IMG/VR virus record: IMGVR_UViG_3300037487_001184
Coordinates: 1-64,000 of that record
Reading direction: 5' to 3' (one strand)
Length of the DNA stretch: 64,000 nucleotides
From: a virus
The notes below the pieces were generated by a model. It was not told the origin of the DNA and made no database searches. It worked only from the letters and a program-made list of their open reading frames with translations. This document shows positions 34,147 to 36,590 of the stretch, piece after piece; within the stretch, counting starts at the first letter, position 1; every line of letters starts with the position of its first letter. The position numbers and the translations under genes were made by a program.

Positions 34147-34710
34147 ATGATTTATAATAAAGAAATAAAACTAAATCTATCTGGCTCACGTAGGTACTAT
34201 TACTTTTTTGATGCAGACCATCCACTAAGCAATAAGACTGGGAGGATTCTGTATCACCGCCACGTTGCATCTCTAAAAATAGGAAGATGGTTAACATGTG
34301 ATGAGCATACTCATCACATAGATGGAAACTCATTGAATAATGACCCGGATAATATCACAGTGCTGTCTAGATCAGAGCACAGTAGAATACACAACCCAAA
34401 ACAGCTTTGCGCTATTAATTGTATATTATGTGGGAAGCTGTTTACCCCCCTCAAATCGAAGACTAAATTCTGCGGGACCAAATGTAGAATAGAATCCTAC
34501 AAAAAACTGTATATTCCTAAAGAAGAATTAGCTTCACTGGTTTGGGAAATGCCTTCCTCAAGGGTGGCTGAGCTACTGGGAGTATGTGATAGTGCTATCG
34601 TTAAGCTTTGTAGAAAGTTAGAAGTTAAAAAACCCCCAAGAGGGTACTGGGCAAAAGTTTATGCGAGTGAGAATGCCCTCATGTCGAATATAGGAGTTAC
34701 TTCATGCTAA
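34147..34710 (+). CDS. HNH endonuclease (HNH_3-type) with zinc ribbon and C-terminal HTH
   Basis: YHRHV..IGR.L..E.THHIDGNSLNN..DN..SEH..H; CxxC; PPRGYW. Confidence 0.88.
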   Translation: MIYNKEIKLNLSGSRRYYYFFDADHPLSNKTGRILYHRHVASLKIGRWLTCDEHTHHIDGNSLNNDPDNITVLSRSEHSRIHNPKQLCAINCILCGKLFTPLKSKTKFCGTKCRIESYKKLYIPKEELASLVWEMPSSRVAELLGVCDSAIVKLCRKLEVKKPPRGYWAKVYASENALMSNIGVTSC

Positions 34711-34741
34711 GAAAATACTCCTATAGCTTACTCACTGAGGG
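34676..34741 (+). ncRNA. Y RNA-like unit 1; apical loop AUGCUAA (GCU)
   Basis: CCCTCA/TGAGGG outer stem, TGTCGAA, TATAGGAGT/ACTCCTATA inner stem, TACTTC. Confidence 0.7.
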
Positions 34742-34754
34742 ACCAAATATAGAA

Positions 34755-34833
34755 ACGCGTGGCGATAACAAGTGGTTACTTCATAACTCATAGGGATATG
34801 TATTAACGGACCATTTGTAATATCTTCCCGCGT
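34755..34833 (+). ncRNA. Y RNA-like unit 2; apical CUCAUAG (CAU)
   Basis: ACGCG/CGCGT, TGGCGAT, ACAAGTGGTT/GACCATTTGT, TACTTC. Confidence 0.72.
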
Positions 34834-34841
34834 ATTATTAA

Positions 34842-34918
34842 AACTTCGTGGCGATAGATGTGGGTTACTTCATCTCCAAAATGAGCGACAATACCTACAT
34901 CGGAAATTCCCCGAAGTT
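34842..34918 (+). ncRNA. Y RNA-like unit 3; Trp-type anticodon stem-loop CUCCAAA
   Basis: AACTTCG/CGAAGTT, TGGCGAT, GATGTGGGT/ACCTACATC, TTCAT-CTCCAAA-ATGAG. Confidence 0.8.
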
Positions 34919-34930
34919 ACTTTCATTAAC

Positions 34931-35002
34931 ACTTCGTGGCGGCAGATACGGGTTACTTCATCTGAATTGAAACCATAACCTGCATCGCAAATTCCCCGAA
35001 GT
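34931..35002 (+). ncRNA. Y RNA-like unit 4; apical loop UCUGAAU
   Basis: ACTTCG/CGAAGT, TGGCGGC, GATACGGGTTA/TAACCTGCATC, TTCA-TCTGAAT-TGAA. Confidence 0.75.
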
Positions 35003-35013
35003 TAAGTCTATTA

Positions 35014-35127
35014 AACGTGCGGCGGCTGTATCAGGTACTTCGTGTAACTGGTTAAACACTCTTCCTAATCGGGAGACTTTCTGGGTTCAAATCCCAGAGT
35101 ACCCCTGATACAAATAATACCCACGTT
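35014..35127 (+). ncRNA. YrlA-like Y RNA with full tRNA-mimic domain
   Basis: AACGTG/CACGTT, CGGCGG, TGTATCAGG/CCTGATACA; internal D-arm GTGT-AACTGGTTAA-ACAC and T-arm CTGGG-TTCAAAT-CCCAG; no CCA end; near a TROVE gene. Confidence 0.82.
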
Positions 35128-35138
35128 ACTAAAATATA

Positions 35139-35198
35139 TCCTTGTGCCCGGATTAATTTTCCACCGAGCAATAAGCTCAACAGCACAGGGAGTTTTTT
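35139..35198 (+). terminator. stem-loop with U-tract after the ncRNA array
   Basis: TCCTTGTGC/GCACAGGGA, then GTTTTTT; large structured loop. Confidence 0.45.
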
Positions 35199-35381
35199 AA
35201 TGGGTGATTAAATGACAAAAGATGAAACCATAAAACGTCTTTCTTCGTCTCTTTATGACGCAGCCTCTAACCGCCAAGAAGATAAATCCCCAGAAGCAGT
35301 ATTGAAAACTGTCTCACAGTGGTTAGAAGAATTACCTACTGAGATGGAAAAGCTATTGAAAGAGAAAGAATCGGCTGGTTA

Positions 35382-36032
35382 GTGATGCTAGACCTAACTA
35401 ATAAAAAATTTAATCGGCTGACAGTAGACTCTTTTGTGGGTAGGGATAATTTTCGAGACTCTGTATGGTCCTGTGTCTGTGATTGCGGGAATATTGTAGA
35501 AGTCACAGGAGGCAATTTAAAAAAGGGGAACACAAAGTCCTGCGGATGTCTAAAAAAAGAAGTAAAAAATGAACATAAGATTAAACACGGTCACGCACAA
35601 CACGGAGTAAAGAGCAAAGTGTATACGTGCTGGATAAGTATGATACAGAGATGCTATAACCCCAATAGGGATGGTTATAAAAACTATGGTGGCAGGGGAA
35701 TCAAAGTCTGTGAAAGATGGCACATCTTTGAGAACTTCTATAATGATGTGGGTGATTGTCCAGAAGGTTTAACATTGGATCGCGAGGACAACAATAAGGA
35801 CTACGCTCCTGAGAATTGTAGGTGGGCTACCAACAAGGAACAAAGCAACAATACCAGAAGAAACCATCGTGTAACCTATAAAGGAGAAACTAAAACACTC
35901 TCCCAATGGGCGCAGGATCTAGGTATAAATAAAAGTAAATTAAGAAGGGATTGGATTAAGGTTGGTATTATAACTCCCCTACCAGCCGCCAAATATATTG
36001 CGGGAGTAGAAGATTACAGGCAGGTCTCATAA
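35382..36032 (+). CDS. HNH homing endonuclease-like protein inserted in the RNA cluster; 3' end runs into tRNA sequence
   Basis: Family motifs; C-terminus degenerate. Confidence 0.85.
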   Translation: MMLDLTNKKFNRLTVDSFVGRDNFRDSVWSCVCDCGNIVEVTGGNLKKGNTKSCGCLKKEVKNEHKIKHGHAQHGVKSKVYTCWISMIQRCYNPNRDGYKNYGGRGIKVCERWHIFENFYNDVGDCPEGLTLDREDNNKDYAPENCRWATNKEQSNNTRRNHRVTYKGETKTLSQWAQDLGINKSKLRRDWIKVGIITPLPAAKYIAGVEDYRQVS

Positions 36033-36070
36033 ACCAGCACATCCCGGAGCGTTACCGGGTCCCGCGACCA
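35999..36070 (+). tRNA. degenerate tRNA-Met(CAU)-like element lacking a normal D-arm
   Basis: TGCGGGA/TCCCGCG acceptor, CTCATAA loop, CCCGG-AGCGTTA-CCGGG arm, ACCA end. Confidence 0.65.
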
Positions 36071-36073
36071 GAT

Positions 36074-36148
36074 GCTGGCGTAGTTCAATGGTAGAACAAT
36101 GGTTCTGTACTCCATTTGTTGTGGGTTCAACTCCTACCGCCAGCTCCA
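36074..36148 (+). tRNA. tRNA-Thr(UGU) with C33 and a U31-U39 mismatch
   Basis: GCTGGCG/CGCCAGC, cloverleaf, loop TCTGTAC, TCCA end. Confidence 0.8.
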
Positions 36149-36154
36149 ACAAAT

Positions 36155-36230
36155 TCCCTGATAGCTCAGTTGGTAGAGCGGAAGGTTGAAGACCTTCGCG
36201 TCGTAGGTTCAATTCCTGCTCAGGGAGCCA
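36155..36230 (+). tRNA. tRNA-Phe(GAA)
   Basis: Cloverleaf, GAAGG-TTGAAGA-CCTTC, GCCA end. Confidence 0.93.
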
Positions 36231-36233
36231 AAT

Positions 36234-36320
36234 GCAGGAGTGGAGGAACTGGGATACTCAACGGACTTAAAATCCGTTGCCAGAAATGGATTGAGGGTTC
36301 AACTCCCTCCTCCTGTACCA
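36234..36320 (+). tRNA. tRNA-Leu(UAA)
   Basis: ACGGA-CTTAAAA-TCCGT, long variable arm, ACCA end. Confidence 0.92.
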
Positions 36321-36326
36321 ATAAAC

Positions 36327-36403
36327 GGGGGCGTACTCCAATTGGAAGAGAGACAGGATTTAGACTCCTGCCAGTGTAGGCTCGTATCCTACCGCCCCTA
36401 CCA
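36327..36403 (+). tRNA. tRNA-Leu(UAG), short variable loop, atypical T-loop
   Basis: CAGGA-TTTAGAC-TCCTG; T-loop CTCGTAT; ACCA end. Confidence 0.85.
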
Positions 36404-36409
36404 AGTAAC

Positions 36410-36498
36410 GGGGGGTTAGCCTAGTAGCGAGGGCGGTTGGCTGTAACCCAACTACATATAATGAAACACTGGAAGTTCAACTCTTCCCCCACCCACCA
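36410..36498 (+). tRNA. tRNA-Tyr(GUA) with imperfect acceptor stem
   Basis: GTTGG-CTGTAAC-CCAAC, long variable region, GGAAG-TTCAACT-CTTCC, ACCA end. Confidence 0.8.
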
Positions 36499-36519
36499 GA
36501 ATGGCTGAATAAGCCTAAA

Positions 36520-36590
36520 GCGGAGCGGCGGAGACTAGAGATACTTCAAACTGTTACTTTGACCAAACTCTAGTCAACACTACCCTCCAC
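36520..36590 (+). ncRNA. Y RNA-like unit 6; Asn-type anticodon stem-loop CUGUUAC
   Basis: GGAG/CTCC, CGGCGGA, GACTAGAG/CTCTAGTC, TACT, then TCAAA-CTGTTAC-TTTGA; 36 nt upstream of the TROVE gene. Confidence 0.8.

Follow-up and report, generated by a model that had tools for sequence, protein, structure and literature searches.

Bacterial Ro60 proteins are accompanied by Y RNAs, which they bind and stabilize, and bacterial species are described as having at least two of these, one tRNA-like and one a plain hairpin (PMC4201824). The same study (Chen 2014) recognizes Y RNAs by a location within ~4 kb of the Ro60 gene and on its strand, by a GNCGAAN0-1G box, and by a YUAY sequence; its supplementary tables, which we searched, give one putative YrlA per genome, and in its account of Deinococcus radiodurans the Y RNAs are co-transcribed with a tRNA. 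A crystal of the YrlA tRNA-like domain places a kink at the conserved UA (Wang et al. 2018, 10.1101/312249). Gating or tethering by Y RNAs is reported for D. radiodurans (PMC4201824) and, with PNPase, for Thermus phage phiLo, whose Ro60 binds two upstream Y-like RNAs and the PNPase of its host (PMC12135203). Here we analyze positions 1 to 64,000 of the IMG/VR virus record IMGVR_UViG_3300037487_001184 (hereafter the window), in which six small RNA units, U1 to U6, precede a phage Ro60 gene. The window covers the first 64 kb of the genome of a lake or sediment phage, which is complete at 124,229 bases and has direct terminal repeats. The six units are very probably genes for Y RNAs that bind the Ro60 encoded just downstream; five are short, with a YrlB-like layout, and U5 is long, with a tRNA-like domain.

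Results

Six units with a common fold precede a phage Ro60 gene

An earlier note on this DNA had described five tandem units and a sixth, all Y RNA-like and tied to a phage Ro60 gene. The units lie where it placed them, and their position, strand, fold, and motifs bear out the tie to Ro60 (lengths in nucleotides, nt, or amino acids, aa):

34676..34741, + strand: U1, short unit; GUCGAA box and UUACUUC; apical hairpin UUC/GAA with the 7-nt loop AUGCUAA
34755..34833, + strand: U2, short unit; GGCGAU box and UUACUUC; two-tier apical hairpin, no 7-nt loop
34842..34918, + strand: U3, short unit; GGCGAU box; apical hairpin UUCAU/AUGAG with loop CUCCAAA
34931..35002, + strand: U4, short unit; GGCGG box; apical hairpin UUCA/UGAA with loop UCUGAAU, C at position 33
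35014..35127, + strand: U5, long unit; GGCGG box and GUAC; apical module 35033-35105, a tRNA-like cloverleaf
36520..36590, + strand: U6, short unit; GGCGG box and AUAC; apical hairpin UCAAA/UUUGA with loop CUGUUAC
36627..38192, + strand: Ro60 gene (TROVE plus vWA), 521 aa; Pfam TROVE, 87 bits

U1 to U5 stand head to tail on the + strand (34676-35127), separated by spacers of 8-13 nt, and U4 is a recent duplicate of U3. The 5' end of U6 lies 21 nt past a tRNA-Tyr gene and its 3' end 36 nt short of the Ro60 start codon, which is downstream of all units at distances of 36 to 1951 nt on the same strand.

The units share a fold composed of an outer stem, a bulge, GG:CC, a CGR loop, an inner stem, an invariant UACUUC, and a variable apical module. 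Each unit folded alone adopts it, with z-scores against shuffles of -2.4 to -4.1. A strict pattern combining the two motifs (G[GT]CGR-N9-11-TACTTC) occurs at six sites only when both strands of the 124,229-base genome are searched, and these are the units; a looser one (GNCGR-N6-18-ACTTC) has 11 more matches, scattered over the genome. A loose stem descriptor that omitted UACUUC was discarded as useless, giving ~90 matches per strand. Because alignments of six or five units made with MAFFT were poor on the 3' side, we seeded a first covariance model with U1, U3, and U4 only. This model recovered U2 (E 2e-6) and U6 (E 0.014) and, with filters off, gave no further convincing match in the 64 kb, the next best being the reverse strand of U1 (E 0.08). 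It missed U5 because the tip of that unit is 66 nt; a second model, built from 28 members of the family described below, detected U5 at 32.1 bits (E 6e-5). The shared architecture claimed for the units is evident both in single folds and in a model of three that finds others.

Related units accompany Ro60 genes in phages, metagenomes, and bacteria

The window Ro60 has 1880 relatives at E <= 0.001 among 8000 scored candidates, the nearest at 44-48% identity, and among solved structures it best matches the phiLo Ro60 from Thermus phage, over residues 14-342 (E 8.6e-18). A search of viral contigs for Ro60 relatives with the single protein gave no match; viral loci were recovered using an alignment of 25 relatives. 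In all, we fetched 43 viral, 80 metagenome, and 80 bacterial genome loci, the last mostly from Bacteroidota.

The first model matched the viral loci 26 times, 26/26 on the Ro60 strand. With the second model we obtained 110 matches in the window and viral loci (E up to 1), 148 in the metagenome loci (E up to 0.01), and 292 in the 80 bacterial loci (E up to 0.01, 292/292 on the Ro60 strand), amounting to 550 matches beside Ro60 genes in the three sets together. At E up to 0.01, which drops four weaker matches, 253 of the 254 in the window and the 123 viral and metagenome loci lie on the Ro60 strand. The sole opposite-strand match (locus L086, 692-831, - strand, 43.6 bits) adjoins a + strand unit at 912-998.

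At least one unit is present in 100 of these 124 loci: one in 29 loci, two in 30, three in 20, four in 6, five in 9, and six in 6, counts in which many contigs are incomplete and a few loci duplicate one contig. Six units likewise sit directly upstream of the gene in the three phages whose Ro60 is nearest (L003/L047, L004, L005), four of them long and two short, as opposed to one long and five short in the window. In the bacterial loci (L125-L204) the units are mostly downstream of Ro60, and several Bacteroidota genomes have seven in a row (e.g., L126, L130, L136). Since rows of units beside Ro60 are common, numbering two to six in many contigs of phages and metagenomes and as many as seven in Bacteroidota, the window array is ordinary, and the earlier view of it as unusual does not stand.

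Sequence variation across the family points to a folded RNA. TACTTC is present in 371 of 380 distinct units, and the box consensus is GGCGU-AG. In the viral alignment (105 distinct sequences) all 17 model pairs covary, with changes on both sides. Paired cells make up 89.4%, versus 55.4% in shuffles and 43-50% with slid partners, in an alignment that was fitted to the model and so favors it. At one pair G-U occurs 29 times and U-G once, which fits an RNA read from this strand. The tips range from nothing to whole tRNA-like domains, and many are bare loops, UUCG-type tetraloops, or other folds. A long unit conserved in L003, L004, and L005 (~124 nt, at ~3581-3706) has a tip with neither T arm nor D arm and is a third, undescribed kind of Y RNA tip. 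Rfam searches of 17 viral loci at gathering thresholds returned tRNAs only.

The units resemble YrlA and YrlB in layout and motifs

All six units lie near the Ro60 gene on its strand, and in each both ends pair into a long stem broken by an internal loop, as Chen 2014 describes for Y RNAs. The YUAY sequence of that study appears as UUAC in U1-U4, GUAC in U5, and AUAC in U6, UAC being common to the six, and the tRNA-like Y RNA that it expects at least once per genome is represented by U5. The GNCG box and the UAC of the units appear to correspond to GNCGAAN0-1G and YUAY of YrlA and YrlB. On position, fold, and motifs together, the units are Y RNAs, though outside the present Rfam families.

The short units resemble the "long hairpin" Y RNAs: YrlB of Salmonella enterica (RF02565), YrlB of M. 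smegmatis, and Yrn2 of D. radiodurans. Judged by the Rfam consensus, both have a terminal stem and a box approaching the GNCGA type; their inner stem of ~10 bp (base pairs) leads to UUAC(A/U)UC, after which come a small hairpin at the apex, an asymmetric linker on the 3' side, and the closing stem. The YrlB gene likewise lies beside Ro60 on the same strand, and Ro60 binding is described for Salmonella YrlB. YrlB differs in its loop, which has 6 nt and is rich in pyrimidines where four window units have an anticodon-type loop of 7 nt, and in its single copy, as against five short units in the window. With YrlA the window shares the UA(C) hinge, a tRNA-like effector domain, and a location at most 4 kb from Ro60 on its strand, the Ro60 box being similar, and the long relatives found by the second model carry a T arm, a closed acceptor hairpin, and a D arm. 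The window differs in having no permuted, YrlA-type unit, the acceptor stem of U5 being fused to the Y stem. Published drawings, moreover, label the hairpin after UAC a variable arm, whereas here it has the dimensions and the loop consensus of an anticodon arm.

Two further systems could be compared by their published descriptions. The phiLo RNAs Yrl1 and Yrl2 also lie directly upstream of a phage Ro60 gene and are described with a CGAA-type box, but they number two rather than six; for them, binding and a ternary complex with host PNPase have been reported (PMC12135203). The Yrn1/tRNA-Asp/Yrn2 cluster of D. radiodurans likewise places several Y RNAs upstream of Ro60, in one precursor with a tRNA; it differs in that both strands of its Ro60 helix are described as resembling those of animal Y RNAs.

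U5 carries a tRNA-like cloverleaf at its tip

Overlooked in the earlier note, the tip of U5 is a complete tRNA-like cloverleaf. ARAGORN reads this apical module as a tRNA, "Ile aat," and it scores 32.2 bits on the tRNA model in permissive searches (29-bit threshold), although the gathering search did not list it. The acceptor-like stem continues into the Y stem, with pair 1-72 mismatched, and the "anticodon" stem closes a 5-nt loop both in the alignment to the tRNA model and in the fold. With no free acceptor end, a 5-nt loop, and the 1-72 mismatch, 35033-35105 was rejected as a true tRNA.

Short apical hairpins resemble anticodon arms

The earlier note had read the apical loops as anticodon-like. 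Folding of the tips by minimum free energy overlooked weak hairpins of 3-4 bp and was replaced by an explicit search in which the UC of TACTTC pairs downstream in a stem of at least 4 bp and the size of the closed loop is scored. In the viral and metagenome set (230 distinct units, 223 with TACTTC) this gave 30 7-nt loops, compared with 5.2 +/- 2.1 (maximum 15) in 200 tip shuffles; other loop sizes were near chance, and 86 units had no such stem. An independent bacterial set, the top 150 matches, gave 18, compared with 3.4 +/- 1.8 (maximum 9) in shuffles, so that the enrichment is five- to sixfold. Across the 48 pooled loops, position 32 is a pyrimidine in 38, position 33 is U in 38, position 37 is a purine in 40, and position 38 is A in 37, with any of the four bases at 34-36; the bias toward U33 and R37 among homologues, on which the earlier note had in advance made its idea depend, is therefore present. 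G37 accompanies G36 (6/8 versus 1/40; Fisher p 1.5e-5, a value that ignores relatedness). This coupling parallels the m1G37 rule of real tRNAs.

In long units that have the hairpin, the T loop begins 7-11 nt after it in 16 of 19, mostly at 9-10 nt, a spacing that equals a variable loop of 4-5 nt, often AGGUC, plus a 5-bp T stem, and in an alignment to the tRNA model one such hairpin takes the place of the anticodon arm. Loop size, consensus, and distance to the T loop together make the hairpin published as a variable arm an anticodon-arm look-alike, of which the 7-nt hairpin of U1, U3, U4, and U6 is the counterpart. Anticodon-loop geometry is a family-wide, non-random feature, found in 48 of the 371 units with TACTTC (~13%).

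Within the window, 7-nt loops were confirmed in U1, U3, U4, and U6 as they had been described, each on a 3-5 bp hairpin closing on UUC. U3 (CUCCAAA) and U6 (CUGUUAC) fit an anticodon arm in full, with 5-bp stems; U1 (AUGCUAA; A32, 3 bp) and U4 (UCUGAAU; C33) fit in part, and U2 and U5 do not. The loop CU CAU AG earlier assigned to U2 is not a loop, since its CUC pairs with GGG inside an 11-nt loop. Tips are not consistently the faster-changing part: of seven close unit pairs, two show greater divergence in the tip than in the scaffold at p < 0.05, namely U3/U4 (48/54 versus 13/22, p 0.008) and one pair in locus L072 (p 0.04), and in another L072 pair the loop is unchanged while the scaffolds differ. 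As the earlier note observed, none of the loops duplicates a tRNA of the phage, which has seven, but this is about what chance would give for four loops (estimate ~0.5).

Neighboring genes and strain variation

Around and between the units lie the following features:

34021..34048, + strand: perfect sigma-70-type promoter consensus (TTGACA, 16 nt, TG, TATAAT), a consensus match only
34147..34710, + strand: HNH endonuclease open reading frame (ORF), directly upstream of the array; not present in a near-identical strain
35212-35382: 56-aa ORF, lying with the next ORF between U5 and the tRNA genes
35382..36032, + strand: 216-aa ORF of a repeated phage family, paralogue at 30718-31359; without Pfam match
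36074..36498, + strand: five tRNA genes (Thr UGU, Phe GAA, Leu UAA, Leu UAG, Tyr GUA), between U5 and U6

The HNH ORF ends inside U1, its last codons overlapping the 5' half of that unit. The promoter sequence matches the consensus at 12/12 positions, has the extended -10 TG, and stands ~100 nt upstream of the HNH ORF, making it a possible start of the array transcript; promoter-like sites across the region show no excess over shuffles.

Copies of the repeated ORF family lie at 30718-31359 and 35382-36032 (+ strand), with similar stretches near 18151 and 25292 (+ strand) and near 50283 and 61694-61914 (- strand). They carry motifs such as CDCGN, GNTKSCGC, YGGRGIKVCERW, and PENCRWAT, have no Pfam match, and look like a mobile, endonuclease-type gene; one copy lies between the Y RNA array and the tRNAs. 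Three matches above threshold to int-alpA, an Rfam RNA motif, occur on the - strand (41-49.5 bits; 50365-50433, 55756-55827, and 61998-62065), at least one of them directly upstream of a copy of this family. Elsewhere in the window, a DNA polymerase A gene (40474-43035, - strand) has an N-terminal domain of the uracil-DNA-glycosylase superfamily (Pfam UDG, 75.9 bits) fused to exonuclease and polymerase domains.

We compared contigs of four DNA runs, in which the short units were poorly covered, with the region. A 2131-base contig of one run links 34076 to 34953 through 247 bases that replace 877, which indicates a near-identical strain without the HNH gene and with other units there (the U1-U4 stretch up to 34953). 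Its U5 has a single changed position, and its U6 has none listed. A joint in contigs of the near-identical strain also leaves out 315 bases of the tRNA cluster (36176-36492), so that the RNA genes lie in a hot spot of variation among strains.

Discussion

In the most likely mechanism, a single transcript would carry the array, the tRNAs, and Ro60, perhaps beginning at the promoter at 34021-34048, and would be cut at the AU-rich spacers to free the units together with the five tRNAs. Loading of the units onto the phage Ro60 would rely on two elements a constant 9-11 nt apart, the bulged GG:CC/CGR helix and the UACUUC hinge; UACUUC, one helical turn beyond the Ro60-recognition box of bulge, GG:CC, and CGR, holds the conserved UA that kinks YrlA. 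The ribonucleoprotein so formed may gate the Ro60 cavity or tether Ro60 to a host partner, whether PNPase or a tRNA-binding protein, with the swappable tip beyond UACUUC picking the partner, and the phage would thereby redirect host RNA decay or repair.

Several observations weigh against this reading. When compared with Rfam YrlA (RF02553) and YrlB (RF02565), as the earlier note had suggested, the six units gave no score with the cutoff relaxed to E 10 and 466 bases searched, and the sole YrlA match in the window search falls on true tRNAs (20.4 bits); the short units nevertheless have the layout of YrlB, and the motifs resemble those of YrlA and YrlB. The Rfam thresholds are 69 bits for YrlA and 97 bits for YrlB. 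A long unit in locus L037 reaches 50.7 bits on Rfam YrlA (E 9e-11), under its threshold, and a short relative reaches 16.1 bits on YrlB. Five of the six boxes, GGCGAU in U2 and U3 and GGCGG in U4, U5, and U6, are unlike the published GNCGAA, which U1 matches with GUCGAA; GNCG is kept and AA is not. The cloverleaf of U5 has the normal order, which is also that of published drawings of D. radiodurans Yrn1, whose tRNA-like part has the same orientation, and is unlike the permuted YrlA. We found no RtcB gene in this phage genome, and the RNA-repair setting of Salmonella is therefore absent. Finally, the partner and the benefit to the phage proposed above are taken over from other systems.

The resemblance of the apical hairpins to anticodon arms invites a more specific role, in which Ro60-bound loops soak up host anticodon nucleases or draw anticodon-loop enzymes and so protect the tRNA pool. 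We consider this unlikely, and we are similarly doubtful that the arrays of phages and Bacteroidota are in general Ro60-anchored displays of anticodon arms (CU-NNN-AA or UU-NNG-GU) with a different loop on each unit for proteins that read anticodon loops; in phages, such displays would either weaken host anticodon nucleases or recruit tRNAs, cut or uncut, and their enzymes to Ro60. The excess of 7-nt loops over shuffles in both the viral and metagenome and the bacterial sets, the consensus at 32, 33, 37, and 38 around free middle positions with its G36-G37 coupling, and the placement of the long-unit hairpin relative to the T loop, together with its alignment as an anticodon arm by the tRNA model, all speak for such a role. 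So does the report that in Salmonella cleavage of anticodon loops induces Ro60 and Y RNAs along with tRNA repair, where the authors suggest that YrlA may competitively inhibit an anticodon nuclease (PMC7790460). Yet the hairpin occurs in roughly one unit in eight, U4 has C33, U2 has no such loop, tips outpace scaffolds in two of seven pairs only, and the phage is without RtcB; stems of 3-5 bp with an invariant UUC as the 5' strand mean that the arm is not free to mimic the stem of a given tRNA. Free middle positions suit neutrality as well as specificity, and the loop shape could be an inheritance from a tRNA ancestor, retained because it makes a stable U-turn. The case for decoys is weak.

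Erosion offers another account of the same features: the short units would be decaying leftovers of long YrlA-type genes or of tRNAs, with only U5, and perhaps U6, serving Ro60. The predominance of long units in the closest relatives would suit it, as would the variability of the region between strains and the homing-endonuclease-like ORFs on both sides. We regard it as very improbable, in that every short unit retains both stems, the box, and UACUUC, that short units of the same layout are common in viral, metagenome, and bacterial loci and covary, and that Salmonella YrlB, described as Ro60-bound, shares the short layout. Tight, tRNA-like spacing (8-13 nt among U1-U5, 21 nt past tRNA-Tyr) and the adjoining HNH and related ORFs might instead suggest elements that act as DNA or in processing, that is, protein-binding sites, homing-endonuclease targets, or signals for cutting the tRNA/Ro60 transcript. 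Such elements seem extremely improbable given the near-uniform orientation of the family with Ro60; compensatory changes and a tolerance of G-U on one strand only argue for a folded RNA, and bacterial arrays downstream of Ro60 occur with neither tRNAs nor endonuclease genes nearby.

We therefore return to Y RNAs that bind the Ro60 encoded beside them. The units are further members of this known class, and a decoy-like idea has already been put forward for YrlA (PMC7790460). Of the earlier picture of a diversified set of minimal Y RNAs without known precedent, the varied tips and the anticodon geometry stand; the layout of the short units is that of YrlB, and the motifs resemble those of YrlA and YrlB. 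A limited literature search found no paper on Y RNA arrays or on anticodon-like Y RNA loops.

What the tips of Y RNAs bind is the main question about bacterial Ro60, and the family offers three handles on it: a strongly conserved UACUUC hinge; up to six or seven different Y RNAs for one Ro60 gene, where one YrlA per genome has been tabulated (PMC4201824); and a hairpin published as a "variable arm" that matches an anticodon arm in size, in loop consensus, and in position. If this hairpin is not read by enzymes or nucleases of the anticodon loop, the window simply adds six members to a known class of RNA. If it is so read, phage Ro60 particles would join the tRNA-centered counter-defenses.

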